A stretch of 64,000 nucleotides of DNA from an uncultured Cytophagia bacterium (lineage in GTDB: Bacteria > Zhuqueibacterota > Zhuqueibacteria > Residuimicrobiales > Residuimicrobiaceae): assembly GCA_964436305.1 (NCBI GenBank), contig CAYTCI010000003.1:22350-86349 (forward strand). Reading direction: 5' to 3'. The notes under the pieces are model-generated. The model saw nothing but the letters and a program-made list of their open reading frames with translations. It did no database searches and was not told the DNA's origin. Numbering within the stretch: the stretch's first letter is position 1; each line of letters begins with the position of its first letter. Position numbers and translations under genes: made by a program. Positions 26,137 through 46,503 of the stretch are shown one piece after another.

Positions 26137-26155
26137 AGGTGAGAGGTCGTACTAC

Positions 26156-26620: not shown

Positions 26621-26629
26621 AGCCGGGCA

Positions 26630-28267
26630 TCACGCCCGGGACAAGAAGAGGGGATTGGTGAAGCAGCGGTGGAGGATGCCATCGCGCCGGCTGCTCACCT
26701 CGAGGCGGAGATAGCCGCGCGCGGGAAGCGCCGGGGCGGCCTCCTGCCATTCGAACAGCCAGGAACCCGCGGTCGCAATCGGAAGCGACCGGCGGGTTTC
26801 TTTTTTTTCTGCTGTATCGCCGATGCATAAAGTCATGCTTTCGAGTGGGCCGAAGGTGGCGGTCGATTCCGCCCGGACGGACCAGGCGAGCGGCGGCATG
26901 GTGCAGGTATCGCCGAGCGTGAGGACCGCACCTTCGCGGGTGGTGAGTTCGAGCCAGGCAGCGGGGCCGCTGGTGACCAGGCAGCGGCCATCCTTCAGGG
27001 CCTGCAGCAAGGCTGCCGGCGTCAGCCGCCCGGCTGGACGCACGATTCCGGTACGGACCTGGCCGAAAAGATGTTCCTCCTTCTCCTTTAGGGCGAGATG
27101 GGGAAAGGCGATCTGACGCCACCGTCCCCAATCGCCGTGGGCGTCATTGCCGCCGATCAGGACCGGGCGCCGGCCGGAGAGCAGCAGGCGCCGCCAGACG
27201 GCCAGGCCCCGTTCGAGGCTGACGTCTTGGAGGCTGTTCCACATCTGCACGCCATCGAGGCGGGGATGCGCGTAATCCGCGGCGCGCCAGTGATCGCGAC
27301 CGAGCAGGAGGCGCTGCAGCCGCGGCGGGCGCGACTCGGCGTGGCCGGCGAAAGCGAGGCTGGTATCCTGCAGCCGCTCCAGCACCTCGGCGATCCGCCA
27401 CTGCGGGCGGCAGCGCAGCCAGTGCTCCGCCGAGTCACCCCAGCCGGCGAAGAATTCGGGTTCGTTGAGCAGCAGAAAATGGATGTTTCGACCGCGGCTG
27501 TTGCCGGCGGAGAGTTCCTCCCCCGCAAGGATGACCGGCTGCCGGCCTGCCTCGTTCCATCCCCGGGTAAACTCCAGCAGCCAGCGCCACTTGCCCAGCG
27601 CCGCATCCCTCTGCAGGTAGTCATCCCACAGATCGTCGAGATCGTAGGAATGGTCGGTCACCGCGAAAAAGTCGAGCCCCATGGCCGTCGCAGCGGCCGC
27701 CGCTGCTTCGGGCGGGGCGCCGAATTCGACCTGGTCAGCGGTGAGGTGGCTGTGGTAGTGGAGGTCGCCAAAGCACCAGCGGCCGGTGCCGGGCAGCTCC
27801 GCGGCATCATGCCAGAGCTGCAAGGGGGCATGACGGAGCGTGGGATAGTTGTCGACGCGAACCTGGCGCAATCGCCCCGCCTGCCGGCAAAGGAGCATCG
27901 GCGTGACCTGCAGGGCCCCATGGACCGGCGGGAGCGGCAGCGGAAAGGTGCGCCACCAGAGGGATTGGCCGACCCTTTCGCCGCCCAGGGGGATCGACTC
28001 GCTGCGGAGGATATCCTTCCCGCGGGTCATGACGATCCGGATTTCGAGCAGTTCGACGGGATAGCGGTCGGCATCCTTGATCAGCAGCAGCAAGGGCAGC
28101 TCGCGGCCGGGGGCGAGACGATGCGGGAGATCGAAAAGGATTTCGGCGCGCCGGCGGAAATAGCGGCTGGGCAGCCGGCCGATCCGGTAATGGGTCTCGA
28201 CGTAAAGCAGAAAGCCGGTCAGCAGGGTGCCGGCCAGGGTGTGGGGAAGGCTGGCTGGCAGGATCAC
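26630..28267 (-). CDS. Membrane-anchored PHP-domain metallophosphoesterase (CehA/McbA-like); last gene of the operon
   Basis: GTG start overlapping the upstream stop (GTGA at 28264-28267). N-terminal hydrophobic helix. PHP signature FGDLHYHSHLTADQVEFG...GLDFFAVTDHS and a later GGNDAHGD. Confidence 0.7.
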   Translation of the reverse strand: MILPASLPHTLAGTLLTGFLLYVETHYRIGRLPSRYFRRRAEILFDLPHRLAPGRELPLLLLIKDADRYPVELLEIRIVMTRGKDILRSESIPLGGERVGQSLWWRTFPLPLPPVHGALQVTPMLLCRQAGRLRQVRVDNYPTLRHAPLQLWHDAAELPGTGRWCFGDLHYHSHLTADQVEFGAPPEAAAAAATAMGLDFFAVTDHSYDLDDLWDDYLQRDAALGKWRWLLEFTRGWNEAGRQPVILAGEELSAGNSRGRNIHFLLLNEPEFFAGWGDSAEHWLRCRPQWRIAEVLERLQDTSLAFAGHAESRPPRLQRLLLGRDHWRAADYAHPRLDGVQMWNSLQDVSLERGLAVWRRLLLSGRRPVLIGGNDAHGDWGRWRQIAFPHLALKEKEEHLFGQVRTGIVRPAGRLTPAALLQALKDGRCLVTSGPAAWLELTTREGAVLTLGDTCTMPPLAWSVRAESTATFGPLESMTLCIGDTAEKKETRRSLPIATAGSWLFEWQEAAPALPARGYLRLEVSSRRDGILHRCFTNPLFLSRA

Positions 28268-29316
28268 GGCGCCTCCCGGGCGAACGTGCCGGCTCCCTGG
28301 AGTTCAGCCAGGATTTCAGCGGCGGGGCGCAAGTCGGTCCGCCGTGCGGCGTGCGGCAGAGCGGGGCGCAGATATTTATCGAAACTGTATTTGGCCTTGG
28401 CGGTCAGGCTTTGCAGAAAGAAGCGGTCGAAGCGGTAGGTGAAGGAGGGGTCGAAATAGCAGTTCAGGGTGCATCCTTCACATACGGGCCGGCGTCCCTG
28501 CAGGGCGCGCTGTTGGCTGACCTCTGCTCCGCGCCAGACCTGCTCAAGCCCCGTCTCCAGCGGAATTCGTATGGCTTCCCGATGATAACACGGAAGGATC
28601 AGCTCGTTTTGCGGCGAGATCACCACAACGCCGTCGACCACACGGCAACGCGAGGCAGCCGTGCGGTTGCCGCCCTGGCGGCGCAACCGGTGCAGAGCGC
28701 GGTTAAGGTAAACGAAGGGTTGATTCGCGAAGGATTCGATCAACGCGAGATCCGCGGGCATCAGCTCGTGGTGCTGCCGGTGCGAAAAGACCGGATTGAC
28801 GATGAGGATCAGCCGCAGGCGCTGGCAGAATTCCACCAGGCGGGGAAGATGGGACAGGGTCTCGGCGCGCGCGGTGAAGAGGATGTCCGGTTTTTCGCCA
28901 AAGTGACGGGCCCGGTCGATGCTGGTCATCACCGCCTCGAAGCAAGCAACCCCGCGCAGCCGGTCGTGATCGCCGGCCGAGGCGGCGTCCAGTGAGAAAT
29001 GAAGAAAATCGACCTGCCCGGCGAGTTCGGCGGCGCGTTCCGGGTAGAGCAGGGTATTGGTGGTCAGGGTGGTGCGCAGTCCGGCGGTGCGGGCCAGCCG
29101 GAGCATCTGCGGCAGATCGGGGTGCAGCAAGGGCTCGCCGCCGGTGAAATCGACGAAGCGCAGCCCGAGGCGTGCCGCGGCGGCGAGATTGCGCGCCACA
29201 TCACTCCGCTGCGCGGGCGATCCTGCGGGCTGGCGCCAGATGTCGCAGATGGTGCAGCGGCTGTTGCAGCGCTCCGTGATATAATAATGCAGCAGCAGCG
29301 GAGGCAGCCAGGACAT
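28264..29316 (-). CDS. Radical SAM enzyme with C-terminal auxiliary Cys cluster (rSAM-3)
   Basis: Start reset from 29751 to ATG 29316 (GGAGG RBS). CNSRCTIC (CX3CX2C) at residues 17-24, GGEPLL motif, C-terminal CRVVDG...ILPC and CEGCTLNCY. Confidence 0.85.
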   Translation of the reverse strand: MSWLPPLLLHYYITERCNSRCTICDIWRQPAGSPAQRSDVARNLAAAARLGLRFVDFTGGEPLLHPDLPQMLRLARTAGLRTTLTTNTLLYPERAAELAGQVDFLHFSLDAASAGDHDRLRGVACFEAVMTSIDRARHFGEKPDILFTARAETLSHLPRLVEFCQRLRLILIVNPVFSHRQHHELMPADLALIESFANQPFVYLNRALHRLRRQGGNRTAASRCRVVDGVVVISPQNELILPCYHREAIRIPLETGLEQVWRGAEVSQQRALQGRRPVCEGCTLNCYFDPSFTYRFDRFFLQSLTAKAKYSFDKYLRPALPHAARRTDLRPAAEILAELQGAGTFAREAP

Positions 29317-29330
29317 GGTTCCTCCCGGGG

Positions 29331-30467
29331 TCAGGTCTGCATGGCCCGGCCGGGGTGCGCCGGGTAGTTCTGATCTTTCCAGCGGATGCGCCGGTCGAAG
29401 AGCAGCAGCGGCGGCAGGATCAGACTGTAGGCGAAATAAAAGAGTTCGAATGCGGGAAAATGGCGCAGCAGCGCACTCTGGCCGGTCTGGCGAGTCATCT
29501 TGCGGCACAGAACCCAGTCGCAGGCCCAGAGGATCATGAGCGCCAGCAGGCCGGCCGGCTTTCCGCACACCAGCACCGCCAGGGTGGCGAGGTGACAGCC
29601 ATAGCTGATCGCCATCAACAGCTTGCCGAAGGGTCGCACCTGGCGGATGCCAAGCGCCCAGCGGCGGCGCTGGTAATAGAAGGCGGGCAGTGTGGTCACC
29701 GGCAGACTGGTGACTGCCGCACCCTGTGCGGTGGTGATGCGCACCTGCCACGGACTGGAACGCGAGATCGCATCGAGGAGGGCGAAATCCTCGATGAGAC
29801 TGGGGCCAAGGGCCGGATAGCCGCCGACCGCGAGATAGGCACTGCGGCGGAAGGCCATGTTATTCCCCATCCAGCTGAGTGGCTTGCCGAGGCGGATCGC
29901 GGCGGCTGCGATGCCGAGGAGGTAGAGTCCATCCAGGGCCTGGACGGCTGCGAATATGGGGCGGCGGCCGATCCGGGGATCCAGCAGGGTCAGGCCGCCG
30001 ACCAGACCAGCCTCAGGCGTAAAGGCGGCGAGCAGCTGACGAATCCAGCCTGGCGGGACCTGGCAATCTGCATCGGTGACGAAGAGAACCTCGCCGCGGC
30101 TCTCACAGATGCCGGCATAGACAGCGCCGGCCTTGCCCGGCAGTGTTTTTTCACCGCGGGCCAGATAGAGTGCTCGTACCTGCGGATGGGCCGTACAGAA
30201 GGCCTGCAGCAGCCGGTCTGAGCCGTCGCTCGAATCGTCGTCGATGAAAAAGATCTCGAGTTTGTCGGCCGGATAGTCAAGGGCGACGAGCGAGTCAAGG
30301 CAGGCGGCCAGGTGCGGCGCTTCATTGCGGATGGCGATGATCACGCTCACCAGTGGCTCCCAGGGCGGCTGCTCCGCATCCCCGGCGAAGAGGCCCTCCA
30401 GCTGGCGGCTCAAGACGACCACCATCGCGGCATAGAGGCCGCAGAGGATGAGCAGCAGGACCGACAA
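29331..30467 (-). CDS. Polytopic family-2 glycosyltransferase, paralog E
   Basis: N-terminal TM helix, VSVIIAIRNE, FIDDDSSDGS, FVTDADC, IEDFALL, QRRRW, C-terminal TM bundle ending RIRWKD. Start is uncertain: TTG 30467 (GGAAGGA RBS, 1 nt after the upstream stop) is preferred over ATG 30566, which would overlap the upstream gene by 98 nt. Confidence 0.8.
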   Translation of the reverse strand: MSVLLLILCGLYAAMVVVLSRQLEGLFAGDAEQPPWEPLVSVIIAIRNEAPHLAACLDSLVALDYPADKLEIFFIDDDSSDGSDRLLQAFCTAHPQVRALYLARGEKTLPGKAGAVYAGICESRGEVLFVTDADCQVPPGWIRQLLAAFTPEAGLVGGLTLLDPRIGRRPIFAAVQALDGLYLLGIAAAAIRLGKPLSWMGNNMAFRRSAYLAVGGYPALGPSLIEDFALLDAISRSSPWQVRITTAQGAAVTSLPVTTLPAFYYQRRRWALGIRQVRPFGKLLMAISYGCHLATLAVLVCGKPAGLLALMILWACDWVLCRKMTRQTGQSALLRHFPAFELFYFAYSLILPPLLLFDRRIRWKDQNYPAHPGRAMQT

Positions 30468-30468
30468 A

Positions 30469-31227
30469 TCAGTTTCCTTCCTGATGGCTCTGGAGGCGCA
30501 TGACGACCCGCTGGCCCGCTGGCCCGAACTGCAACAGCAGCGGGAGATTAGCCGGGGGCGGTCCAAGGCAGACGGTCAGCATCCCCTCCGGCCGGGCGAT
30601 GCGGTTGGTCAGCAGGTCGGTCTTCCAGGCTCGCGCCGCTGTGCTGCCGCTGCGGCTGAAACGCAGCACCACCTGCCGCACGCTGACCTTGCCGTCGGGG
30701 CCCTGGAGTTCACCGCCCTCAAGCACCCGGCCGCTGGCGATCCATGCCTGACTTTCGATATCGAGTGCAAAAGCGACCGAATCACCGACGGCGGGAGAGC
30801 GCTGCCGCAGCTGGAAGAGCATGGTGAAGAGGTCCATGGCATCGGCGAGGAAGGGCCAGACGCCCAGGCTGCCGCCCTGCGCGAGCCGCGTCGTCCGGTC
30901 GTAATGGATCTCGAGGGTCTGTTCGAGATTGCTCTGATCGATCCGTTTGCGTACCGTCAGGGGCAAGCCGGTGTGCGGATCGATCTCGGTCTGGTAGAGA
31001 TTGTGGATGGAGAAGAGCAGGCTGGTGAGTCTTTTGGTATCGATGCGGGCCTCGATCCGCTGCGGATCGCCGGGTACGAAGCGGATGACCGCCTCGGCCG
31101 CGCCGATTCCCTTGAAGGAGAGGGAAAAACCGAGGGTTTCGTTCCGGTCGGGCGGCAGCGCCGATTGGGAATGCGCACAGAGGGGCAGCAGACAGAGCGC
31201 CATGCAGATGCACCGCAGCCGGTTCAT
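30469..31227 (-). CDS. Secreted protein, DUF3108-like (family assignment tentative)
   Basis: 252 aa. Signal peptide MNRLRCICMALCLLPLCAHS. Beta-rich composition. ATGA overlap with the upstream radical SAM gene (31224-31227). Confidence 0.55.
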   Translation of the reverse strand: MNRLRCICMALCLLPLCAHSQSALPPDRNETLGFSLSFKGIGAAEAVIRFVPGDPQRIEARIDTKRLTSLLFSIHNLYQTEIDPHTGLPLTVRKRIDQSNLEQTLEIHYDRTTRLAQGGSLGVWPFLADAMDLFTMLFQLRQRSPAVGDSVAFALDIESQAWIASGRVLEGGELQGPDGKVSVRQVVLRFSRSGSTAARAWKTDLLTNRIARPEGMLTVCLGPPPANLPLLLQFGPAGQRVVMRLQSHQEGN

Positions 31228-32282
31228 GACCGCCGCCGCTGCATGCGCAAAATTTTGCGGGCGTTATCCAGCGCCTCGCCGAGCGAGCGCGGATGGACCA
31301 GCAGATAGCGCTGGGTGTAGCAGGTGGTCCAGCAGCCGCGGCATGCCCGGTAGGCCGCCAGCCGTTCACGATAGGCCGGACTCGAAAAGATCTCCCGCAT
31401 AGAGGATTGGCGGAGGTTGCCGACCGGACCGCCCCAGCAGAGGTGGAGATCCCCGTTCTCCATGATGGTAGTCCGGCTGCTGAGAAAACGCGAGGCGACG
31501 AAGGGACACGGTGTGGTTTCGCCCTGGCGGACAAAGGATTCCACTCCGCGCACCCAGGCATTGAGATTGAGGATGTCGGGATTGCGGTCGAGGAAGGCCG
31601 CCAGCCGCGTCAGGCGCTCGCCGGGCTGCACCGCGAGATCATCGTCATCGCGCGTGGTTTCGGTCAGGTGGTGGTAGAGGCCGATGGTTGCTTTCCAGCC
31701 GATGCGTTTGGCCGTGGCGATGAGTTCGGGCACCTGATCGAGATTGAGATCGCTGAGGACGATGTTGCAATAGAGCAGGGAGCGTGAGCCGCCGCGCATG
31801 GCCGAAATCATCTCCATGTGCCGCAATACGGTGGCGCTGAAATCCCTGGCGCCGCGCAGTCGATCCCCGATTTCACCGAAGCCATCGAGTGAGGTCTGGA
31901 TATTAATGTTGTGGTCGAGGCAGAAGCGGCCGATCTCACGGATCCGCTCGTTGGTATTGTAGAGTCCGGTGACCAGGGTGGTCGCCACCGGGAAGGTCTT
32001 TTTCGCCTCGAGGAGGATTTCCGGCAGATCATGGACCAGCGTGGCTTCGCCTCCGGAAATAAAGCCGATATAGGCTCCGTACTGCTGCAGTTCGCGGGCG
32101 ATGCGGCGGAAACTGGCGAGATCCATGCTGGCCGGTTCGGTCGTGCGTTCGTAAACCTGGCACTGGCGGCAGCGCTGGGTGCAAAGGCGGGTGAGGCGCA
32201 CCTCGGTACTCGAGTTGAGGGGGCGCCGGTCCCAGGCGTGCGAGAGGATGGCGGGTCCTTTTTTGACGAGATGTGGGATCAT
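31224..32282 (-). CDS. Radical SAM enzyme with C-terminal auxiliary Cys cluster (rSAM-2)
   Basis: Start reset from 32444 to ATG 32282 (ATGA overlap with the GT2-D stop). CTQRCRQC motif, SGGEATL, C-terminal CPFV...GDLHLC and CRGCWTTCY, paralogous to rSAM-3. Confidence 0.85.
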   Translation of the reverse strand: MIPHLVKKGPAILSHAWDRRPLNSSTEVRLTRLCTQRCRQCQVYERTTEPASMDLASFRRIARELQQYGAYIGFISGGEATLVHDLPEILLEAKKTFPVATTLVTGLYNTNERIREIGRFCLDHNINIQTSLDGFGEIGDRLRGARDFSATVLRHMEMISAMRGGSRSLLYCNIVLSDLNLDQVPELIATAKRIGWKATIGLYHHLTETTRDDDDLAVQPGERLTRLAAFLDRNPDILNLNAWVRGVESFVRQGETTPCPFVASRFLSSRTTIMENGDLHLCWGGPVGNLRQSSMREIFSSPAYRERLAAYRACRGCWTTCYTQRYLLVHPRSLGEALDNARKILRMQRRRS

Positions 32283-33433: not shown

Positions 33434-33437
33434 GGGG

Positions 33438-34580: not shown

Positions 34581-34589
34581 CAGACGGGA

Positions 34590-36173
34590 CTAGTAGTTAT
34601 AGGAGACTTCGAAACGGGCCAGGTGATCCCCGGCGGTGCGGCCCGCGATCCGGCCCGCATTGCGGCTGGAGACATGGGTGTAGGCGATCGAGACAAAGAG
34701 ATCGCGCCGAAGCTGGTCCTGGATGCGAAAGCCGGTCAGGTATTTTTTTTCCACCAGGCCGTTGAGGAAGTGCTTGGTCGTCCCCTTGCCGGGGCGGGCC
34801 TGGGTATCGGCCACGCCCTCGCCCTTGCGGATGCGCTCAAAAGTGGCCTCCAGGCGGAGATCCCGGCCAAGCTGATAGCCCGCCAGCAAAAAGGCCGAGT
34901 CCGAGTTGGGGCCCAGCCAGTGGCCGATGACCTTGTCATAGTGGGTGTAGATGTTGATCGAATCGTGGTGGGCGTAGACGAAGGGTTCAACCCGGCTGTA
35001 TTCCAGCCGCAGGTCCAGATTTCTGGCCCCGAGTGGATCGCTCCAGAGCGCGCCGGTCAGAAAAGCGAATTTGTTGCCATAGTAGCGGGTCAGGCTTTCG
35101 GTGGAGGTCATGTCGTCAATAAAGTACTCCGCATAGAGGCGGGCACCGGGCAGCAGGGTGCAGCTGAGATTCAAAAAGAGGGTATTGTTGTCACGGTCGC
35201 CGAGATGATGTTCGGCGATATGGTAGAGCATGAGCGGATTGAGATAATCCATTTCGATATCGCGGCTGCCATAGACGACGGTTTCGCCGCCACCGAGCTG
35301 GAGCCCGGGCCGGAGGAGAAAGTCGATCCGGTGCGCGGCCATATATTTGGCGCCCAGCGGGCTGCGCAGGAAGAGATGGGCGCTGCTGAACGCGAAACGG
35401 CGGAAGCGGCTCGAGAGGCGGATCATATCGGCGGGCGGCATGTTGCGGGTGAGGGCCAGTCCGCTGTGAAATCCCGGCCCCCAGTCGATCTCGTCGCGGC
35501 CCACCTGAATGCGCAGCCAGGGCTTTTCCCAGATAAAGTAGGCGATGGCCCGGTCGCGGAAAACATTGGGGCCGGAAACCGTCACGGGTGAGCCCTTCGA
35601 GACGTCATAGTTTTCATCCTGGTCGCTGACGCTTTTTTCGCCGCGGGTGACGGCATTGCGGGCGTCGGCATAAAAGCCGAGCACGCCGCCGAGGTTGCCG
35701 CGCAGGATCGCCCCGAGTGTGCCCTCGCTCAGGAGATCCGCGGGCTGATAGCTGCCACCGCGGTTGGAGATGACGCTGACGCTGCTATAGAGGTCGATGA
35801 AGGCCTGGCTGGTGCCCTCCTGCCAGCGGGCGGAATGGAGCTCGCCTGGCTTGGCGGTCACGGCCGGGGTCATCGCCCCGAGTTCATCCGCGAAATCGCC
35901 CCTGAGCTGTTCCAGCAGCCGCCGGTCCGTCTGCGAGAGCAGGCCGGGTTTTTCTGCGGTACGCGCATCAATCGCCGTAATGAGTTTCGCCACCTGGGTG
36001 CGATTGAGCGGGCGGTCAAGGAGCGCCAGGGATTTGAAGAGCCCCTTGGCCTCCATGCGCTCGAGAAATCCATAGCCCCAATAGTCCAGCGGGACATGGA
36101 CACTCTGCGCGAGCACCGGCAGGGCGCAGAGGAGCAAAAGCAGGCTGAGGCGGCTGGATTTCATCGGAACCAT
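34590..36173 (-). CDS. Capsule-assembly Wzi-like outer-membrane protein
   Basis: Signal peptide ...LLLLCALPVLAQS. N-terminal PLDYWGYGFLERMEAKGLFKSLALLDRPLNRTQVAKLI matches the Wzi-family helical N-domain pattern. Beta-strand-rich remainder ends in the aromatic FEVSYNY. Confidence 0.65.
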   Translation of the reverse strand: MVPMKSSRLSLLLLLCALPVLAQSVHVPLDYWGYGFLERMEAKGLFKSLALLDRPLNRTQVAKLITAIDARTAEKPGLLSQTDRRLLEQLRGDFADELGAMTPAVTAKPGELHSARWQEGTSQAFIDLYSSVSVISNRGGSYQPADLLSEGTLGAILRGNLGGVLGFYADARNAVTRGEKSVSDQDENYDVSKGSPVTVSGPNVFRDRAIAYFIWEKPWLRIQVGRDEIDWGPGFHSGLALTRNMPPADMIRLSSRFRRFAFSSAHLFLRSPLGAKYMAAHRIDFLLRPGLQLGGGETVVYGSRDIEMDYLNPLMLYHIAEHHLGDRDNNTLFLNLSCTLLPGARLYAEYFIDDMTSTESLTRYYGNKFAFLTGALWSDPLGARNLDLRLEYSRVEPFVYAHHDSINIYTHYDKVIGHWLGPNSDSAFLLAGYQLGRDLRLEATFERIRKGEGVADTQARPGKGTTKHFLNGLVEKKYLTGFRIQDQLRRDLFVSIAYTHVSSRNAGRIAGRTAGDHLARFEVSYNY

Positions 36174-36231
36174 CTCTCAATGAGTGCAAGGCGGGTGGTG
36201 TCTGGCGGTGGAGCGCCGGAATTTGGAAAGG

Positions 36232-36259
36232 AATATATCAATAATGGCGTTCAATTCAA
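36232..36259 (-). promoter_or_regulatory. Candidate internal sigma70-like promoter in the only real intergenic gap of the operon
   Basis: On the minus strand: TTGAAT (36259-36254), 16-nt spacer, TATATT (36237-36232), about 60 nt upstream of the Wzi-like start. The promoter consensus of this lineage is unknown. Confidence 0.3.
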
Positions 36260-36269
36260 ATGATTTTCA

Positions 36270-37415
36270 TCATTGCGGCGCCGGGAGGCCGGCAAGACGG
36301 CCCTGGCGGTAGTGGCGCCCCTTCCAGGTAAAGCGGCCGAGGAGACCGAGAAGCCCGATCACCGGAATGTAGAGCAGGTGCAGGAGCGAGGCGAGGAAAA
36401 AGGCGCGCCAGTCCCAGCTGCGCCGGACCATGCGTACGCCGAAGCGCATCAGCAGGGCGTCGCCGGACCACTTGAGCACCAGCGCGGCGAGCGGGATCCA
36501 CAGCGGGAAGGAGAGAAGGAGCGCCAGGGGCGGGCCGAGCAGGAGAGCCAGATAGCTGAGAAAGAGGCCCGCTTCGACCGCCTTGATCCAGGCGGGATAG
36601 CAGGCGGACTTGGAGGCCCAGCGGATGCGCTGGCGGAAAAAATCACGCCATGAGGTACACGGGAAGGTGGTCACGCCAGCCTCGGGATCAGCGTTGAAGT
36701 GGATGGCACCGTGACGGGCCAGTTTCTGGATCAGCAGGTCATCGTCACCCGAGCCCATTTGCGCGAATCCGCCGTAGCCGCCGTTCTCGAGAAACAGCCG
36801 GCGGCGGAAGGCCAGATTGGCGCCATTGGCGATGAGAGGCCGGCGCCAGCCGATGGCCGCGGCGCCGACCAGTTGGAGGGCCAGGGCGTCAAGGAATTCG
36901 ATCCGCGCGGGCAGGCTTTTCTCTTCGGGAATCAGAACCCAGGCGGCGACAGCAGCGGTATCGCGTGCAAAGGCAGCACTCATTTTTTCCACCCAGTTCG
37001 GCGGTGTGGAGCAGTCCGCATCGAGGGTGAGGATGATCTCGCCGCCCGCGGCGGTGATGCCGGCAGCCAGGGCGGCCTTTTTCGGTGCATAGCCGGCCTC
37101 GGTCGCCGGTGCGCCCAGGATGCGGATGGACGGGAAGCGGGCGGCAATCCGCTCGACCGCGGCTCGCGTTCCATCCTCCGAATGATCATCGACCACCACC
37201 GTCTCGAGTAACTCACGCGGATAGCTCTGCTTCAGCAGGGTCCCGAGACAATAAGGGATGTTCTGTTCTTCATTGCGCGCGGCGATCACCACCGAGGCTT
37301 TGGGCAGGGTCTCACCGGCGCGCGGTCGATGCAGCCGTCGCAAACCGCTGAGGCTCCAGGCGATGAACAGGAGATAGAGGAGCGAAAGGAGGAGGTAGAA
37401 CAAGGGCGCGATCAT
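36270..37415 (-). CDS. Polytopic family-2 glycosyltransferase, paralog B
   Basis: Start reset from 38015 to ATG 37415 (ATGA overlap with the upstream stop). N-terminal TM helix, ASVVIAARNEE, VVDDHSEDGT, LTLDADC, GSGDDDLLI, QRIRW, C-terminus ends RFTWKG. Confidence 0.85.
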   Translation of the reverse strand: MIAPLFYLLLSLLYLLFIAWSLSGLRRLHRPRAGETLPKASVVIAARNEEQNIPYCLGTLLKQSYPRELLETVVVDDHSEDGTRAAVERIAARFPSIRILGAPATEAGYAPKKAALAAGITAAGGEIILTLDADCSTPPNWVEKMSAAFARDTAAVAAWVLIPEEKSLPARIEFLDALALQLVGAAAIGWRRPLIANGANLAFRRRLFLENGGYGGFAQMGSGDDDLLIQKLARHGAIHFNADPEAGVTTFPCTSWRDFFRQRIRWASKSACYPAWIKAVEAGLFLSYLALLLGPPLALLLSFPLWIPLAALVLKWSGDALLMRFGVRMVRRSWDWRAFFLASLLHLLYIPVIGLLGLLGRFTWKGRHYRQGRLAGLPAPQ

Positions 37416-38389
37416 GCCGGACCTCGCATGCGGATGGAGTGAGCCCTGCGGGCGGTGCTCCGGCGAAGAAGCAGGACCAGTCCGGCCAGGGCGGGCATCA
37501 AAACGTTGATAAAAAAGAGCAACAGGGAGCCATCGAAGGCCGGCGCCGGAGGAATCCCCAGTTCGCCAAGAAAATAGATGGCGGCGCTTTCGCGAATGCC
37601 CAGATCGCCGATCGAGATCGGCAGCATGGTCTTGACCCAAAGGGTGGCCATCAGGGCCTGCAGTCCGCGCATCAGCGGCAAGAAGCAAAAGGCACGGATC
37701 AGGAGATAGAACTGGAGCAGATAGGTCAGGACCTGTCCGAGGGCCAGCAGGCTGATCCGCAGGGCCAACAACGGCGGTACATGCTCGAGGCTGGAGATGG
37801 TCCGGGCGAGTTTGTTGCGATGCTCCCAGTGTTTGCGGAATTTTTTCAGGATCCCGGCCAGAAAGGGGGGATGGAGCAGCAGCAGGAAGAGCACGGCAAA
37901 AAAGGCCAGGGCGACGATCAGGAGCGGCAACCAGACCAGCAGTTCGGTCTCTTTTTTCAGGATGGGTATCATGCCGATCAGCCCGAAAAAGAGCAGGGTC
38001 AGGAAGGCGTAGCATTTATCCAGCAGGGTGAGACCGAGCAGCCGCGGCCAGTCGTTGCCGGCGATGAGGAAAGCCCGGCCGAATTCGCCGACCCGCCCGG
38101 GGGTGATGAAGCCGAGGGTGATCCCGGAGAGGAGCGAGGAGAAGATTTGCCGCGCCGGCACCTGGGGCTGAACCTGGCGGACCAGCAGGGCCCAGCGGCG
38201 GTATTGGAAGTACAGGTTGAGGCCGAGGAGGAGCACGGCCGGGAGGATCCAGAGAATCCGGGCCTGGAGGAGTGCCGCTTGAAGCTCAGCGGCGTGGATA
38301 CGCCGGACCAGCATCGCCACAACGATGACGGCAATCGCCACCTTGGCGAGGATCAGGACGCGTTTATGCCGGGTAAAGGGAGAGGCCAT
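37412..38389 (-). CDS. UPF0104 / lysyl-PG-synthase-TM-region family flippase-like membrane protein
   Basis: 325 aa with about 8 TM helices. The pattern ...YRRWALLV...LSGITLGFITPGRVGEFGRAF... is typical of TIGR00374-type flippase-like proteins. 26-nt overlap with the upstream gene. Confidence 0.7.
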   Translation of the reverse strand: MASPFTRHKRVLILAKVAIAVIVVAMLVRRIHAAELQAALLQARILWILPAVLLLGLNLYFQYRRWALLVRQVQPQVPARQIFSSLLSGITLGFITPGRVGEFGRAFLIAGNDWPRLLGLTLLDKCYAFLTLLFFGLIGMIPILKKETELLVWLPLLIVALAFFAVLFLLLLHPPFLAGILKKFRKHWEHRNKLARTISSLEHVPPLLALRISLLALGQVLTYLLQFYLLIRAFCFLPLMRGLQALMATLWVKTMLPISIGDLGIRESAAIYFLGELGIPPAPAFDGSLLLFFINVLMPALAGLVLLLRRSTARRAHSIRMRGPA

Positions 38390-39377
38390 CGCTGCAATTC
38401 AGACAAATGTGAGGTGCCTTGCCGGAGCACTGTTGTCGGCGAAAGGCGCGGGAGGCCGGACCGCGCAGGGCTGCCGCCAGCGGTTCCGAACCATTGCCGA
38501 GGAGATGCTCACCGTTCTTATCAAAACAGCAAGGAACGATATTTCCATCCCAATGGACGACACAGGAGTAGGCCAGGCGCGAGCAGGGGAGACGACGGCC
38601 GCTCCTGGTCAGCCAGCGATCCTCCTGCAGAGGATAGCGCCGGAAGCGCGGATCGGCAGGCAGGAAATCTTCCGCCGGCATGCCGGCATGGAGGTAGAGC
38701 GACTTGAGGAGCAGATGGTCCGCGCCCCAGGCGCGGGCGGCTGCTGCCATCCCCGGCAGCTCGTATTCGTTTTGGCGGGTGATTACGAACTGGAGATAGA
38801 GACGCGGCGTCGACCGGCCCAGGGACCGGCGCGCCTGGCGCAGATGGCGCAGGCCGGCTTGCAGCTTTGCCAGCGAGCCCCCGCGGCGAATGGCGGCATA
38901 GCGCTCCGGCGTCACCGCATCGGCCGAAATAATCAGGGCATCCAGGCCGCTGGCGACGACCTCGCGAGCCAGGGCCGGATCGGCCAGTCGCTGACCGTTG
39001 GTGCTGCTGACGACGCAGATCCGGTGCGATTTGGCCAGCCGCACCATCTCGGGAAAATCGGGATGGAGGAGGGGCTCACCCTGGTCGTAGAGCAGCAGAT
39101 AAAGCAGATGGTGCTGATTCACCTGCAGGATGTGACGGTAGAGGTCAAGATCCATCCATCCGCCGGGACGCGTCAGCGTGCCGGTACCGGTTTCGCAGTG
39201 CGGACAGCGCAGATCACAGAGATTGGTAGGCTCAATGCTGAGGACGTAGGGTGCTCCCCAAAAGTGCGGGCGTCCGTCGAGGCGGCCGGCGGCGGTCGCA
39301 GCCAGAGCCCCGGCGGCCTGCAGGGCCCGCTGCGGCGTCAGAGCCGGCAGCAGCCGCGACCAGGGGATCTCTTTCAT
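38364..39377 (-). CDS. Radical SAM / SPASM-domain enzyme (rSAM-1)
   Basis: Start reset from 39455 to ATG 39377 (ATGA overlap with the methyltransferase stop). CDLRCPHC motif, QGEPLL, C-terminal CVVHWDGNIVPCC (CX5GX4C) followed by CSGKAPHICLNC. Confidence 0.85.
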   Translation of the reverse strand: MKEIPWSRLLPALTPQRALQAAGALAATAAGRLDGRPHFWGAPYVLSIEPTNLCDLRCPHCETGTGTLTRPGGWMDLDLYRHILQVNQHHLLYLLLYDQGEPLLHPDFPEMVRLAKSHRICVVSSTNGQRLADPALAREVVASGLDALIISADAVTPERYAAIRRGGSLAKLQAGLRHLRQARRSLGRSTPRLYLQFVITRQNEYELPGMAAAARAWGADHLLLKSLYLHAGMPAEDFLPADPRFRRYPLQEDRWLTRSGRRLPCSRLAYSCVVHWDGNIVPCCFDKNGEHLLGNGSEPLAAALRGPASRAFRRQQCSGKAPHICLNCSDGLSLYPA

Positions 39378-40174
39378 GACCTCCCCTTCCTGGCGAGGAT
39401 AAAAAAGGTGGGCATCAGCCAGCGGTTGCCGAAGGAATTGCGGTTGTCGATCCACCGCCCGAGACGCCGGTCCCAGCCATGCGTCTGCAGGCGCTCCACC
39501 ATGCGCAGGTGCCAGGGACGGTTCCAGAGGGCGCGCGGCGAGCGCATCGCCGCCTCACTGGTTTCGCGGTTGATAAAGCACCAGGAGAAACCGGCATCGC
39601 GCAAGAGACGGTCGATCGAGGCGAGCGAAAGCAGTTGCGGGAAATCGGGCTTGTCCGCCGGCAGCCAGTGCAGCCATTCCGCGACGACACGCGCCACGTT
39701 CCGGCGCGAAAGCAGCGAGAGCAGCGGCAGGCCGTAATGAGGATCGCACAGGGCGTTGGCAGGCGAGCAGCGGTTCGGGGTGGCGACCAGCAGCAACCCG
39801 CCGGGCCTGAGTGCGCCGCCGATTTGCTGCAATACCCGGGCGGGATCGGCAAGATGTTCGAGCACATCCCACAGGACCGCGGCTTGCAGCGGCGTATCCA
39901 TCTGCCATCTGCCGAGATCGGCGCAGACATAGCGCACCGCGCTGCCGGCGATCCGGGCAGGGGGTGAGGCCAGCCGATCCACAGCGGTCACCAGCGCGCC
40001 GGCCTCCGCCAGCGCCCGGCTGGCGCCGCCTGCACCGCAGCCGGCATCGAGGACCGCCGCACCGGAGAGCGTCATCCAGCGCTGCAGCAGAGTGACGATC
40101 AGTTCTCCGCGCAGTCCGGCCCAGTCGTCATAATTGCTCCAGAGACGCAGATGGCCGGTCAGGGCTTGGGCCAC
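39374..40174 (-). CDS. Class I SAM-dependent methyltransferase
   Basis: GTG start. Motif I VLDAGCGAGGASRALAEAGALVTAVD, then LVATPN. 16-nt overlap with the upstream GT2-A. Confidence 0.8.
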   Translation of the reverse strand: MAQALTGHLRLWSNYDDWAGLRGELIVTLLQRWMTLSGAAVLDAGCGAGGASRALAEAGALVTAVDRLASPPARIAGSAVRYVCADLGRWQMDTPLQAAVLWDVLEHLADPARVLQQIGGALRPGGLLLVATPNRCSPANALCDPHYGLPLLSLLSRRNVARVVAEWLHWLPADKPDFPQLLSLASIDRLLRDAGFSWCFINRETSEAAMRSPRALWNRPWHLRMVERLQTHGWDRRLGRWIDNRNSFGNRWLMPTFFILARKGRS

Positions 40175-41253
40175 GAGACCTCCGGCCCCAGAGGCGGCAG
40201 GGCGAAGAGATGGTAGAGCGGAAAGAGCACCTGCCAGAGGAAAAAACCACCGGGATGGAAGGGCTGCCGCAGCCGGCTGCTCCAGAACCAGAGGGCCAGG
40301 CCATCCAGCAGGATCTTGGCGGCGAGGAAGAGGAGCAGGGAGGGCCGCAGGAAGGGCGCGAGGAGCAGCAGCGACCAGAGCAGGAGGTTGGTGCCGTGAA
40401 AGAGGAGATAGCCAAGCTGGACGGGCCGGGTATAGCGGGCGCCCGCGGAGAGGTGACGGCGTTTTTGGCGGCGGAAGGTGCGCCAGTTGGCGGGCCCGCG
40501 GGCGGGAACCGCCGCCTCGGGTGCGAGCTGGTAGGTGAGTTTGCCGCCGGGGGCGGTTGCCAGGCGCTGCAGGAGAAAGTCGTCATCGCCGGAGAGGGTA
40601 TCGGGCAGGGCAGCGTAGCCGCCGATGGCGCTCAGGGCCGCCCGGCGGCAGGCGAGGCTGCGGCCCGTGCCGGTGATGGCGCGTCCATGGCCGAGGCCGC
40701 CGGCGGCGACCAGGGCTGCGGCCAGGGTATCGGTGTGGAGAAAGGCGCGCCAGAGCGGCGGCGCCTCCGGCGCGGTCAGGGGAGAAAAGCCGGCACATGC
40801 CGTCGCACCCGCGGCGAGGGCAGCCGCCATCCCGGCCATCCAGGCCGGCGGCGGGGTGCAGTCGGCGTCGGTGAAGAGGAGGTATTCGCCGCGGGCCTGG
40901 CGCAAGGCGCTCTCGAGCGCCCCCTTCTTGCGGCTTTGCCAGCGCCCGGGATGCGTATTGTCGAGCAGCCGCCAGCCCGGGTGACGCGCCACCGCGGCGC
41001 TGGCGATCGCACGGGTGGCGTCGCAGGACTGGTCATCGACGATCAGCACCTCCCGGTCACCCCCATACGCTTGCGCACCCAGGGCAGCGAGGCAGTCGCC
41101 GAGCAGCGCACCCTCGTTGCGGGCGGCGACGATCACACTCAGACTGGGCAGCGATGCCGGTATGGGCGGGCGGCGCAACCGCAGGATCCCGCAAAACAGC
41201 CACGCGATGATCAGGAGATAAAGTGAAAATATTATTGAGATTGTCAGTATCAT
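40159..41253 (-). CDS. Polytopic family-2 glycosyltransferase, paralog A; first gene of the operon
   Basis: ATG 41253 preferred over TTG 41289. N-terminal TM helix, LSVIVAARNE, IVDDQSCD, LFTDADC, LSGDDDFLL. The QxxRW position reads RQKRRH. C-terminal TM bundle. Confidence 0.8.
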   Translation of the reverse strand: MILTISIIFSLYLLIIAWLFCGILRLRRPPIPASLPSLSVIVAARNEGALLGDCLAALGAQAYGGDREVLIVDDQSCDATRAIASAAVARHPGWRLLDNTHPGRWQSRKKGALESALRQARGEYLLFTDADCTPPPAWMAGMAAALAAGATACAGFSPLTAPEAPPLWRAFLHTDTLAAALVAAGGLGHGRAITGTGRSLACRRAALSAIGGYAALPDTLSGDDDFLLQRLATAPGGKLTYQLAPEAAVPARGPANWRTFRRQKRRHLSAGARYTRPVQLGYLLFHGTNLLLWSLLLLAPFLRPSLLLFLAAKILLDGLALWFWSSRLRQPFHPGGFFLWQVLFPLYHLFALPPLGPEVSWPKP

Positions 41254-41395
41254 TCCTGGCAAATTATCCAAAAATGGGGAAACAAGCAAGGAATATTACC
41301 GGCAGGAGTGGGCAAATGCCCGTTGGGTGAGACAAAAGCGTTGTTTGCCGCCGATTATTTATGTATCTTTCTGCACATAGCCGACCCAAATCGCA

Positions 41396-42109: not shown

Positions 42110-42121
42110 GAACGGTGTTGG

Positions 42122-43573: not shown

Positions 43574-43590
43574 GAGATTCCTGGGGTTTT

Positions 43591-45048: not shown

Positions 45049-45051
45049 GGT

Positions 45052-46483: not shown

Positions 46484-46503
46484 GCCATTCTCCTTAAAGC
46501 CGA

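Follow-up and report, generated by a model that had tools for sequence, protein, structure and literature searches.

The 13-gene block at positions 26630–41253 of the analyzed stretch of DNA (64,000 nucleotides, hereafter the window) is a real, evolutionarily conserved and so far uncharacterized gene set of an uncultured KSB1/Zhuqueibacterota-type bacterium. It joins three modules that are found apart from one another elsewhere, and it carries a conserved internal promoter-like element. At its core, a lipid-type glycosyltransferase is paired with a sugar-type radical SAM enzyme, and the same pairing is seen throughout the Fibrobacteres-Chlorobi-Bacteroidetes (FCB) superphylum. Our leading, still tentative, reading is that the block assembles a lipid-anchored oligosaccharide at the cytoplasmic face, with radical remodeling of the sugars, and that the product, once flipped, is retained at the surface.

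Organization of the gene block

All 13 genes (G1–G13) lie on the minus strand. Re-derivation of the ORF coordinates and start choices reproduced the genes and junctions of the initial annotation, including the single 96-nt gap (36174–36269). Four ATGA start/stop overlaps of 4 nt (39374, 37412, 32279, and 31224) and one GTGA overlap of 4 nt (28264) are accompanied by longer overlaps of 16 nt (G1/G2) and 26 nt (G3/G4), and the other gaps measure 9, 4, 1, and 14 nt. The modules are GT2–methyltransferase–(radical SAM)–UPF0104–GT2 (module A), Wzi–GT2–GT2–(radical SAM) (module B), and DUF3108–GT2–radical SAM–PHP (module C).

Two promoter-like elements are present on the minus strand. P1 (41260–41290), read from the sequence directly upstream of G1, is CTTGCTTGTTT-N11-TTGGATAATTTG. 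It was missed by a generic sigma-70 scan and is kept in eight of nine aligned relatives, to about 50% protein identity. Its −10 part ends ~9 nt ahead of the G1 ATG, so that any leader would be very short. P2 (36232–36259), TTTGAAT-N16-(TG)TATATT, is located within the 96-nt G5–G6 gap and is the only sigma-70-type match in 25500–43800. A small-ORF search found nothing else in this gap except 25–26-aa TTG ORFs. Both hexamers of P2 are kept in 12 aligned relatives; the intergenic flanks diverge. Because the gap holds this conserved element, the block is probably transcribed as two units, or as one that has a promoter within it. The single 13-gene operon initially proposed therefore holds as far as co-direction and tight packing are concerned, but it has to be redrawn as a three-module fusion with a conserved internal promoter-like element.

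Pfam reproduced 12 of the 13 domain calls, the exception being the PHP-like hydrolase G13, which is supported instead by NCBIfam NF038032 and by invariant His and Asp residues. The cut-offs of the named NCBIfam families were reached by none of the 13 proteins, whose scores stayed well under them, and we found no publication on this gene block.

Conservation and genomic neighborhood

Synteny in relatives, predicted at the outset, was found in two forms. The full 13-gene form occurs at 52–89% protein identity, with the order kept in loci L001/L002, L006–L009, L040, L086, L087, L089, L092, L095, and L116. An 11-gene form without G3 and G9 occurs at 47–60% identity, with the order kept in L003, L012, L013, L016, L090, and L096; two closed genomes are among its carriers. 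Dozens of independent contigs share this order, at protein identities as low as 47%, which is far beyond chance. G3 and G9 are dispensable accessory genes, so that of the three radical SAM enzymes originally assigned to the system only G12 is kept in both forms.

Homologues of G12 number 2934 at E<1e-10. A relative is present in 199 species representatives, and the GT2-E/G12 pair spans the FCB superphylum. Of 76 species loci, 41 have a GT2 gene as the immediate upstream neighbor of the G12 homologue; its immediate downstream neighbor is a PHP gene in 32 of 71 loci, and a DUF3108 gene is found upstream in 29 of 66. In loci of several phyla (L004, L033, L045, L047, L049, L056, and L061), the GT2s are accompanied by a UPF0104 flippase-like protein. 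In sister loci, a NodB/PdaA-type deacetylase without a signal peptide is inserted beside the GT2–radical SAM pair, which puts the chemistry on the cytoplasmic side and ahead of export. Both features favor assembly on a lipid at the cytoplasmic face. Solitary G12 homologues, without an adjoining GT2, were found in Chlorobiota, Rhodothermales, Bacteroidota, and Caldithrix loci; they indicate that the substrate of G12 may be a common metabolite (a nucleotide sugar, for example) and not a lipid-linked sugar.

Cell-wall genes always flank the block, with an SLT transglycosylase upstream and R3H, Mur ligase, and RodZ downstream. Domain and ORF searches of the block found no priming transferase, Wzy, Wza/Wzc, ABC exporter, nucleotide-sugar gene, squalene-hopene cyclase, or precursor peptide, in agreement with the initial annotation. 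However, its statement that this is no standard Wzx/Wzy locus holds for the block itself only: ~0.9 kb upstream, on the same strand, a pst-phoU-RR-HK operon ends with a gene for a Wzx-type flippase (42122–43594; Polysacc_synt_3, E 1e-91).

Glycosyltransferases

The five GT2 proteins (~365–385 aa) all matched PF00535, PF13641, and PF13506, and all retain the catalytic motifs DDxSxD, TDADC, GDD/ED, and QxxR(W/H). They are polytopic: each has a single hydrophobic segment at the N-terminus and two to four at the C-terminus. GT2-A (G1, 40159–41253; PF00535 5e-21, PF13506 2e-11) showed an N-terminal TM helix and C-terminal TM helices in the TM scan, and it has QxxRH in place of QxxRW, as GT2-C does (G7, 33438–34580). 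The HpnI model of NCBIfam aligned over 9–352 with GT2-B (G5, 36270–37415; PF00535 1.4e-23, PF13506 8e-13) and over 3–349 with GT2-D (G8, 32279–33433), with 48.7 and 57.8 bits, respectively. GT2-E (G11, 29331–30467), the conserved partner of G12, scored 92.3 bits against the same model (cut-off 310), residues 9–366 corresponding to positions 15–360 of 373. The GT2-E profile matched ceramide glucosyltransferase end to end (5–365 to 17–380; E 2.5e-17, 66 bits). Judged by sequence, the GT2s of the block are HpnI/ceramide-glucosyltransferase-like. HpnI and ceramide glucosyltransferase are both lipid-acceptor enzymes, and the alignment of GT2-E with them favors a lipid acceptor; this would most likely be a membrane lipid.

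The GT2-E profile matched cellulose synthase BcsA almost as well (residues 9–342, E 7e-16, 61 bits), so a processive synthase role is conceivable. We consider it a less probable, but serious, alternative that the GT2s work in the manner of NodC, PgaC, and BcsA, polymerizing and translocating a surface oligosaccharide or polysaccharide that needs no lipid primer; this glycan would also undergo methylation and radical modification, with the Wzi-like barrel as its conduit or anchor in the outer membrane. The retained QxxRW motif, the PgaC model scores of GT2-B, C, and D (53–64 bits), and a block free of priming transferase, Wzy, Wza/Wzc, and ABC exporter are consistent with such a synthase. The GT2, deacetylase, and beta-barrel of the sister loci resemble PgaC/PgaB/PgaA, and their GT2, NodB-type deacetylase, and methyltransferase resemble NodC/NodB/NodS, which are the GT2, deacetylase, and methyltransferase of the Nod system. 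However, the sister-locus deacetylase has no signal peptide, unlike PgaB and IcaB, and the GT2s have the size and the end-to-end layout of ceramide glucosyltransferase and HpnI. Moreover, neither PilZ nor a PgaD-like partner turned up, a self-translocating synthase would not need a flippase-like UPF0104 protein, and we know of no bacterial precedent for five paralogous synthases within one operon.

It is unlikely that the acceptor is a specific isoprenoid or small molecule (a hopanoid, carotenoid, quinone-like molecule, or cofactor) and not a bulk membrane lipid, by the model of HpnI/J/K, CruG/CruC, and MftF/MftC. The best NCBIfam models of GT2-A to GT2-D, namely MftF (61–86 bits), HpnB, CruG, and HpnI, point in this direction, but all of the scores are 3- to 10-fold under the family cut-offs. 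FCB bacteria commonly contain carotenoid glycosides, and in the window there are two UbiA prenyltransferases and a UbiE methylase (8081–8992, 21879–22766, and 7335–8066). However, the UbiA genes lie on the opposite strand in a housekeeping context and are present also where the block differs, and neither the window nor the 10-kb flanks of the relatives contain cyclase, phytoene, hpn, or mft genes. Furthermore, a cofactor would not predict the secreted DUF3108 protein and the Wzi barrel.

Methyltransferase, membrane, envelope and hydrolase proteins

G2 (39374–40174) is a class I SAM-dependent methyltransferase matching Methyltransf_23/25 (Methyltransf_23, 5.5e-20); it reached no NCBIfam equivalog (UbiG 46 bits, cut-off 103). 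G4 (37412–38389) matched PF03706 (UPF0104/LPG_synthase_TM; 1.4e-31) over its full length, and about 8 TM helices were found in this flippase-like protein. G10 (30469–31227), a predicted secreted protein with a hydrophobic N-terminal segment, matched DUF3108 (PF11306; 1.6e-7, 31.8 bits vs a cut-off of 26) and had no PDB sequence match.

G13 (26630–28267) is a PHP-type metallohydrolase of the CehA/McbA family (NF038032, 95.8 bits vs a cut-off of 80), with no Pfam match for PHP. Its relatives form 517 clusters at E<=1e-30, all of about 540 aa. H170, H172, D178, E181, H206, E250/E251, H263, H309, D375, and H377 are invariant in 29 homologues, and to judge from these residues the His/Asp metal site is intact. 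The predicted layout (AF2 pLDDT 88.3) is an N-terminal helix, a beta-sandwich, the PHP barrel, and a C-terminal beta-sandwich; the anchor helix (residues 10–26) is a low-confidence prediction only.

G6 (34590–36173) is a Wzi-family outer-membrane beta-barrel protein, predicted to be secreted (PF14052 Caps_assemb_Wzi, 6.9e-17, residues 220–507). A distant Wzi homologue is located in a classical Wza-Wzc-Wzx locus, fitting a surface-glycan role for the Wzi family. The N-terminus of G6 is hydrophobic in the TM scan, and an extra N-terminal domain of ~200 residues showed a weak profile match to the SLH domain and coiled-coil stalk of Veillonella OmpM (8bz2/8bys, E 6e-4); W32, Y34, R39, P55, and R58 are conserved in the OmpM-aligned N-terminus of the G6 family. 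This match and the constant cell-wall neighbors raise the prospect, which we regard as improbable, of a periplasmic or peptidoglycan-linked glycopolymer bound by the SLH-like N-terminus, with the barrel in the outer membrane, so that G6 would act like OmpM and SlpA. However, the SLH likeness is this one weak match, Pfam SLH was found in none of the 15 G6 homologues, neither a pyruvyl transferase (CsaB) nor an LCP ligase is present, and conserved housekeeping genes may alone explain the flanking synteny.

Radical SAM enzymes

G3 (38364–39377) matched Pfam Radical_SAM (3.4e-15) and SPASM (9e-10), with invariant C54/C58/C61 and C265, C283, C284, C325, and C328; its best PDB sequence match was BtrN (E 4e-18). 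G9 (31224–32282; Radical_SAM 3.8e-10, SPASM 4.6e-6) has a SPASM/twitch-type C-terminus and invariant C34/C38/C41 and C259, C282, C314, C317, and C321; SkfB was its only PDB sequence match. G12 (28264–29316) matched Radical_SAM (7e-20) and had no Pfam match for SPASM, and it has five further invariant auxiliary-cluster cysteines (C224, C243, and C279-x2-C282-x3-C286). Its AF2 model (pLDDT 90.9) was closest in Foldseek to BlsE (7vob; E 1e-12, TM 0.67/0.71), which was also the best PDB profile match (E 2e-21). The substrate of BlsE is a glucuronic-acid nucleoside (PMC3715490). The nearest solved relatives of G12 and G3 are thus sugar-modifying enzymes, in line with the sugar chemistry that the initial annotation had proposed. 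None of the three radical SAM proteins is a housekeeping equivalog: the MoaA model gave 49–58 bits against cut-offs of 231–325.

The SPASM domains of G3 and G9, their best NCBIfam models, which are metalloenzyme or peptide maturases (tungsten cofactor oxidoreductase maturase, 103 bits; PqqE; MftC), and the SkfB match of G9 would suit a RiPP-like or enzyme-maturation system in which a peptide or encoded protein is modified and glycosylated by the GT2s, but this is very improbable given that the overlapping junctions and the 96-nt gap with its TTG ORFs offer no plausible precursor, that the 11-gene form loses G3 and G9 but no further gene, and that no RRE, protease, or exporter is present.

Proposed pathway

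We return to the lipid-anchored oligosaccharide and infer a pathway with its acceptor, sugars, individual reactions, and final product location. The five GT2s would put sugars onto a membrane-embedded acceptor at the cytoplasmic face, probably working in sequence to yield a short oligosaccharide head group. The operon contains no diacylglycerol, ceramide, hopanoid, or carotenoid synthesis genes. The radical SAM enzymes would then remodel the freshly added sugar by H-atom abstraction. G12 lies directly behind GT2-E, G9, where present, always directly behind GT2-D, and G3 beside the methyltransferase; candidate reactions are a BlsE-type decarboxylation or rearrangement for G12 and a BtrN-type oxidation for G3. 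The product may be methylated by G2. G13, presumably cytoplasmic and membrane-tethered, could catalyze a hydrolytic step, such as dephosphorylation or deacylation of the acceptor or an intermediate. Cds-type head-group chemistry requires a glycosyltransferase and an unidentified phosphatase (2026 review, PMC13459092). Flipping across the inner membrane would be performed by G4. No inner-to-outer-membrane route is evident in the block; we also infer outer-membrane presentation, in which the secreted DUF3108 protein and the Wzi-family barrel would receive or retain the product.

Membership of an hpn-type system was considered and rejected: GT2-E reached 92 of 310 bits for HpnI, HpnJ was absent among the matches listed (best 25 of 29–42), and there is neither a YdjC-type HpnK nor a hopanoid gene. 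The hpn logic initially invoked survives as a likeness. The block resembles HpnIJKL in its logic, although the enzymes are not orthologues; the GT2s are HpnI-like, and the sister loci, with a GT2, a cytoplasmic NodB-type deacetylase, a radical SAM enzyme, and a UPF0104 protein, mirror HpnI-HpnK-HpnJ-HpnL.

Gene organization and conservation

The 13 genes on the minus strand between 26630 and 41253 (G1–G13) fall into three modules that are also found separately in relative loci. Module A consists of a polytopic GT2 glycosyltransferase (GT2-A, G1, 40159–41253), a methyltransferase (G2, 39374–40174), the optional radical SAM/SPASM protein G3 (38364–39377), a UPF0104 membrane protein (G4, 37412–38389), and a second polytopic GT2 (GT2-B, G5, 36270–37415). 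Module B contains a Wzi-like protein (G6, 34590–36173), the polytopic enzymes GT2-C (G7, 33438–34580) and GT2-D (G8, 32279–33433), and the optional radical SAM protein G9 (31224–32282). Module C contains a DUF3108 protein (G10, 30469–31227), the fifth polytopic GT2 (GT2-E, G11, 29331–30467), the radical SAM protein G12 (28264–29316), and a PHP-like hydrolase (G13, 26630–28267). Module B stands alone in five fetched loci (L101, L105, L122, L123, and L128), and module C in six (L005, L018, L021, L022, L026, and L062).

The initial annotation described junctions with five 4-nt overlaps and one 96-nt gap (36174–36269), and the ORF coordinates agree with this; elsewhere, neighboring genes overlap by 16 or 26 nt or are separated by 1–14 nt. 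Its domain calls were all reproduced by Pfam except the PHP assignment of G13, for which no Pfam match was obtained. None of the 13 proteins reached an NCBIfam equivalog cut-off, and scans for tRNAs and Rfam families gave no match in the window. No characterized locus, NCBIfam equivalog, or paper covering the block or the GT2-E/G12 pair was found, and the paper on the phylum Zhuqueibacterota does not mention the block genes.

G12 has 2934 homologues at E < 1e-10, and its relatives occur in 199 GTDB species representatives labeled KSB1, Latescibacterota, Zixibacteria, Zhuqueibacterota, Calditrichota, Ignavibacteria, Chlorobiota, Rhodothermales, Bacteroidota, Fibrobacterota, and Chitinivibrionia. 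MAGs labeled "bacterium" or "candidate division KSB1", the latter of which NCBI equates with Ca. Zhuqueibacterota, gave the best matches; these and a PorV homologue in the window are consistent with an organism of the FCB group. Using HMMs of the window proteins, we annotated 165 fetched loci and found the gene order, which had been proposed to represent a single operon, to be conserved in two forms. The complete 13-gene order, with the SLT transglycosylase and R3H/Mur ligase flanks, is present in L086, L087, L089, L092, L095, and L116, and the visible part of L001/2, L006–9, and L040 agrees with it; the protein identity in this form is 52–89%. The other form has 11 genes, lacks exactly G3 and G9, and shows 47–60% identity. 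It occurs in L003/L013 (on a 3.6-Mb contig), L016 (on a 6.5-Mb chromosome), L012, L090, and L096.

Neighbor counts over the 80 best species loci, which are lower bounds, showed that the G12 homologue has a GT2 directly upstream in at least 41 of 76 loci, PHP directly downstream in at least 32 of 71, and DUF3108 upstream in at least 29 of 66. Wzi is accompanied by three or more GT2s in at least 15 of 50 loci. The loci from Chlorobiota, Rhodothermales, Bacteroidota, and Caldithrix have other neighbors around the G12 homologue. In a Caldithrix sp. MAG (L052, 8756–12606), the G12–PHP pair adjoins R3H and Mur ligase genes as in the window, but the gene before it belongs to the enolase superfamily (MR/MLE) and is not a GT2; therefore, the radical SAM–PHP pair can exist without an adjacent GT2. 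G12-type genes are tandemly duplicated in L045, L047, L049, L059, and L060 (Zixibacteria and Ignavibacteria), and two copies lie on opposite strands in L032 and L038 (Latescibacterota).

Glycosyltransferases

The five GT2s are true paralogues with 30–39% identity. The DDxSxD, TDADC, GDD/ED, and QxxR(W/H) motifs are kept in all five, and G1 and G7 have H in place of W. All five match PF13506 (Glyco_transf_21) with 44–56 bits (cut-off 21.7), and they share a GT21-like layout in which a GT-A domain lies between an N-terminal TM helix and C-terminal TM helices, as placed by a TM scan. The GT2-E profile aligned end to end with ceramide glucosyltransferase, UGCG (5–365 to 17–380, E 2.5e-17). However, the sequence identity with UGCG is low, and five paralogues stand in tandem here. 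GT2-E also aligned over its full length with the HpnI model (NCBIfam TIGR03472), scoring 92.3 bits against a cut-off of 310, and the other GT2s scored 37–58 bits. Within the block, the matches to the mycofactocin models for the glycosyltransferase MftF (61–86 bits, cut-off 280) and the radical SAM enzyme MftC (36–59 bits, cut-off 265) were also below the cut-offs, and MftA and MftB are absent; the block does not belong to the mycofactocin systems.

Radical SAM enzymes

All three radical SAM proteins possess the CxxxCxxC motif and at least five invariant C-terminal cysteines, as is expected of twitch/SPASM enzymes, and Pfam matches to SPASM were obtained for G3 and G9. The possibility that they are housekeeping enzymes (MoaA or HemW), raised in the initial annotation, was rejected because their NCBIfam scores are far under the cut-offs.

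HpnJ, calditol synthase (Cds), and BtrN had been named as structures for comparison by AlphaFold and Foldseek. For G12, the best PDB structure was BlsE (E 1e-12, TM 0.67/0.71, 22% identity). The AF2 model of G12 (pLDDT 90.9) superposes on BlsE, anSME, and MoaA, and the Foldseek matches after BlsE were SuiB, SkfB, MoaA, anSME, viperin-like enzymes, AbmM, DesII, and SpeY. BlsE also came first with the sequence profile (E 2e-21), in a match that spans the N-terminal half only. BlsE is the radical SAM cytosylglucuronate decarboxylase of the blasticidin S pathway and acts on a glucuronic-acid nucleoside (PMC3715490). It is the best structural and sequence relative of G12, and its substrate has a hexuronic-acid sugar ring. 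However, G12 is partnered in the genome by a membrane GT2 rather than placed in a nucleoside antibiotic cluster. The scores against the BlsE equivalog (cut-off 400) were 56.7 bits for G12 and 28 bits for G3, which does not indicate orthology. The best NCBIfam model for G12 was the archaeal PTO1314 family (80.6 of 306 bits).

The first PDB match of the G3 family profile was BtrN (E 4e-18), with the C-terminal Cys-rich domain included, followed by GDGT-MAS and BlsE. BtrN is a twitch enzyme, 2-deoxy-scyllo-inosamine dehydrogenase, whose substrate is a carbohydrate or cyclitol and not a peptide. However, the similarity falls short of orthology, and G3 is about 90 residues longer, has the full SPASM-type Cys set and no aminoglycoside context, and is dispensable in the 11-gene form. 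SkfB was the only PDB sequence match of G9.

Membrane, outer membrane, and hydrolase components

G4 matches PF03706 (1.4e-31) and thereby shares UPF0104 with HpnL at the superfamily level only; no HpnL-specific model was matched. The DUF3108 protein G10 had no useful PDB sequence match.

G13 scored 95.8 bits (cut-off 80) with the CehA/McbA metallohydrolase domain of NCBIfam, and its PHP-type His/Asp set (HxH, H, E, H, H, DxH) is invariant in 29 homologues; no match to Pfam PF02811 at E ≤ 0.01 and no PDB sequence match were found. The AF2 model (pLDDT 88.3) is composed of an N-terminal helix, a β-sandwich, a PHP-like barrel, and a C-terminal β-sandwich. The full-length Foldseek matches were multi-domain GH2-type structures with low TM scores (~0.2) and were disregarded. 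From the Arg-rich residues that follow the helix, we infer that the catalytic domain is probably cytoplasmic. The family is compact, with 517 clusters at E ≤ 1e-30, all of about 540 aa.

G6 is a distant Wzi-family barrel (Caps_assemb_Wzi, 6.9e-17 over the barrel region), and a look-up of the exact protein returned nothing on record. It resembles Wzi, the outer-membrane lectin of the E. coli group 1 capsule, in its barrel, and distant homologues occur in Wza-Wzc-Wzx loci; one with 31% identity lies in a classical locus of this kind. However, the N-terminal domain of G6 (about 200 residues) differs, Wza, Wzc, and Wzy are absent here, and a search of the PDB sequences with the G6-family profile (E ≤ 0.1) returned no Wzi chain. 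Residues 28–113 of G6 (35835–36092) gave a weak match (E 6e-4) to the SLH domain and coiled-coil stalk of Veillonella OmpM. W32, Y34, R39, P55, and R58 are conserved in the G6 family, and Pfam SLH was not detected in 15 G6 homologues. An SLH-type N-terminus of G6 may be taken as a lead only.

A deacetylase of about 210 aa, missing from the block of the window, recurs in the sister loci (L004, L033, L043, L046, L048, L050, L045, L047, L049, L114, L119, L120, and L126), where it adjoins a GT2–radical SAM pair or sits between GT2-B and Wzi. In the Latescibacterota loci L004 and L033, the order is GT2, Polysacc_deac_1, GT2, and G12-type radical SAM, and the opposite strand carries a further GT2 gene and one for UPF0104. 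L045, L047, and L049 (Zixibacteria and Ignavibacteria) contain Wzi, a G3-type radical SAM, UPF0104, the deacetylase, a GT2, and two G12-type radical SAMs. In the KSB1-like loci L114, L119, L120, and L126, the deacetylase gene occupies the place of the 96-nt gap, flanked by GT2-B and Wzi. These deacetylases are NodB/PdaA/PgdA-like (110–144 bits, under the family cut-offs) and have no signal peptide; therefore, hexosamine de-N-acetylation would take place in the cytoplasm, next to the GT2 and radical SAM steps. We also asked whether PHP could replace the NodB-type deacetylase in function; this was ruled out because both are found together in L023, L056, L061, and L120.

Comparison with known systems and proposed function

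The head group of bacteriohopanetetrol glucosamine/cyclitol ether is made by HpnI-HpnK-HpnJ-HpnL, in which a GT2 acts on a membrane lipid and a radical SAM enzyme on the attached sugar, together with a UPF0104 protein (PMC13459092). The block likewise combines polytopic GT2s, radical SAM enzymes, and a UPF0104 membrane protein, and the position of HpnK is taken in the sister loci by the cytoplasmic deacetylase, which is NodB-type and not YdjC-type. However, the components are not orthologues. The three radical SAM enzymes here are short twitch/SPASM types; HpnJ was not among the best 25 of their 29–42 NCBIfam matches, and the only hpn model among these was HpnH (35.9 bits). Nor does the hpn system have the five GT2s, the methyltransferase, the PHP hydrolase, DUF3108, or Wzi of the block, and Pfam found no YdjC-family protein in the operon. 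No squalene-hopene cyclase or hpn genes were found among the window ORFs submitted to Pfam (nearly all, several of them without any match) or in the 10-kb flanks of the relatives. Membership in the hpn system was ruled out by the lack of these genes and by the HpnI score, which is below its cut-off.

Cds of Sulfolobus is a radical SAM enzyme that converts a lipid-linked hexose head group, and its pathway needs a glycosyltransferase and an unidentified phosphatase (PMC13459092). A GT2, a radical SAM enzyme, and a phosphoesterase-type hydrolase stand side by side in the block. However, the organisms here are bacteria with ester lipids, and the resemblance is an analogy only.

The recurring set comprises a polytopic lipid-type GT2, a twitch radical SAM enzyme, a cytoplasmic hydrolase (NodB- and/or PHP-type), the flippase-like UPF0104 protein, and a Wzi-family barrel. 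All functional statements on the block are predictions. To our knowledge, radical sugar chemistry on lipid head groups has so far been assigned genetically, not biochemically, to HpnJ and Cds. We tentatively propose, as a possibility somewhat short of an even prospect, that a sugar head group would be assembled on a membrane acceptor at the cytoplasmic face and radically remodeled there, and that the product would then be flipped and retained at the surface. The logic would be that of HpnI-HpnK-HpnJ-HpnL and, conceptually, of calditol synthesis, carried out by different families (PMC13459092). In the KSB1-type lineage, the core appears to have been extended to five GT2s and a methyltransferase, with the two further radical SAM enzymes optional; this composition points to an oligosaccharide with at most five residues, modified in lineage-specific ways.

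The main rival, although itself rather unlikely, is a synthase-type, non-lipid glycan. Two features favor it: the GT2s resemble PgaC and also BcsA, which the GT2-E profile matches nearly as well as UGCG, and no lipid-pathway gene lies in the block. The PgaC model gave 32–64 bits for the GT2s (cut-off 422) and the CelA model 16–31 bits (cut-off 699), and Pfam detected no PgaA/B/D or BcsB/C domains in the block. With the deacetylase of the sister loci also lacking the signal peptide of a periplasmic enzyme, the block does not qualify as a synthase-dependent exopolysaccharide locus of the PNAG/cellulose type. In the initial annotation, this did not look like a standard Wzx/Wzy capsule locus, and indeed the priming phosphoglycosyl transferase, Wzy, Wza, and Wzc are absent from 26630–41253, where only Wzi of the capsule set is present. 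We rank three other readings lower: a glycoside of a small molecule or isoprenoid, a polymer or tether of the cell wall, and a RiPP. The RiPP reading, which had also been disfavored from the start, was rejected because the 96-nt G5–G6 gap contains no credible precursor ORF and no other junction leaves more than 14 nt between genes; Pfam and NCBIfam found no RRE or peptidase domains in the block.

Returning to the lipid head group, a bolder reading, which taken as one joint claim we regard as doubtful, is that the GT2-E/G12(/G13) core represents unrecognized envelope-lipid head-group chemistry throughout the FCB group. The twitch radical SAM enzymes would rearrange, decarboxylate, or oxidize lipid-linked (amino)sugars, as a bacterial counterpart, by analogy, of calditol and cyclitol-ether formation with non-orthologous enzymes, and KSB1/Zhuqueibacterota would produce a methylated five-sugar surface glycolipid held by the Wzi barrel and possibly tethered to the cell wall. 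The kind of system, a glycoconjugate locus with radical SAM tailoring, is known; this combination and its FCB-wide distribution are new. If the model proposed here for the block is right, an undescribed class of envelope glycolipids, with sugars edited by radical chemistry, is made by a large and mostly uncultured bacterial group that takes in KSB1/Zhuqueibacterota, Latescibacterota, Zixibacteria, Ignavibacteria, Fibrobacterota, and others. Carbohydrate chemistry would then gain new radical SAM enzymes that are tractable and whose substrate is made by an evident genomic partner, the GT2, and the lipids could serve as biomarkers of FCB lineages in sludge, sediments, and hot springs. A functional context would also be available for four widespread uncharacterized families: UPF0104, DUF3108, the 540-aa CehA/McbA-type PHP family, and Wzi homologues outside capsule loci. 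The block is well conserved and experimentally tractable, and it is relevant both to radical chemistry on carbohydrates and to the envelope biology of the FCB group.

Transcription signals

A promoter-like element at 36259–36232 (P2), inside the 96-nt gap, is the only sigma-70-type match within 25.5–43.8 kb. Its elements, TTTGAAT and TTGATATATT, are kept in 12 relatives, in which the intergenic surroundings have diverged. A similar element, CTTGCTTGTTT ... TTGGATAATTTG, lies upstream of G1 (P1, 41290–41260), leaving almost no leader before the G1 ATG at 41253, and is kept in eight of the nine aligned relatives. Their common form is TTG(C/A)(T/A)T at −35 and TTG(G)ATA(A/T)(T/A)TT as an extended −10, and both are kept across relatives down to about 50% protein identity. 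A generic sigma-70 scan returned fewer sites than the shuffled control, and terminator matches fall inside genes; P1 and P2 are credible solely because they are conserved across species. Owing to this conservation, the block probably has two promoters, for G1–G5 and G6–G13, a split that coincides with the boundary between module A and modules B and C. Even without a known function, the three modules and two conserved promoters offer defined units that could be expressed in a heterologous host.

Just upstream of P2, the G5 stop codon is overlapped by AATGAT-GAAA-ATCATT (36263–36278), an AT-rich perfect inverted repeat that could act as an operator or form a weak hairpin; its conservation in relatives is only partial.

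Flanking genes

Downstream of the block, convergent R3H and Mur ligase genes lie on the plus strand, preceded there by RodZ, UbiA, a GWxTD protein, and SMC. On the other side, a divergent SLT transglycosylase gene (41396–42109) separates the block from a tightly packed minus-strand operon (42122–51196) for a porin O/P-like protein, PstS, PstC, PstA, PstB, PhoU, an OmpR-type response regulator, a histidine kinase, and a flippase. This Wzx-type Polysacc_synt_3 flippase (42122–43594) is only 0.9 kb from the block, yet it ends the phosphate operon and overlaps the kinase gene by 4 nt. The adjacency of the flippase/pst operon and the block is kept only in close relatives (L086, L116, and L087/L088).

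Divergent from the phosphate operon, a bifunctional Acyltransf_2 and GNAT acyltransferase is encoded on the plus strand (51415–53241), which we take to resemble the aminolipid synthase OlsF. The pst operon and the OlsF-like gene suggest a phosphate-starvation membrane-remodeling island beside the glyco-operon. Pho regulation of the block was considered because of the adjacent pst-phoU-response regulator-kinase-wzx operon and the OlsF-like gene. It was rejected, as no PhoP-box-like repeats were found at P1 or P2 and the pst adjacency is confined to close relatives. In the intergenic stretch that separates the OlsF-like gene from the porin/pst operon (51197–51414), a PhoP/PhoB-box-like series with 11-nt periodicity, TTAACC-N5-TTTATT-N5-TTAACA-N5-ATGCTA, was noticed by eye.

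Farther from the block, a serpin gene (3858–5096) adjoins that of a 950-aa protein with CarboxypepD_reg repeats and an FlgD_ig-type C-terminal domain (1015–5096 for the pair, minus strand). A second protein ending in FlgD_ig is encoded at 55713–58343 and a PorV homologue at 62667–63692, both on the plus strand. Together, these proteins look like cargo and machinery of type IX secretion. Four consecutive large ORFs on the plus strand (9654–16781; 407, 379, 693, and 849 aa) have high GC3 and no Pfam match at E ≤ 1e-5.
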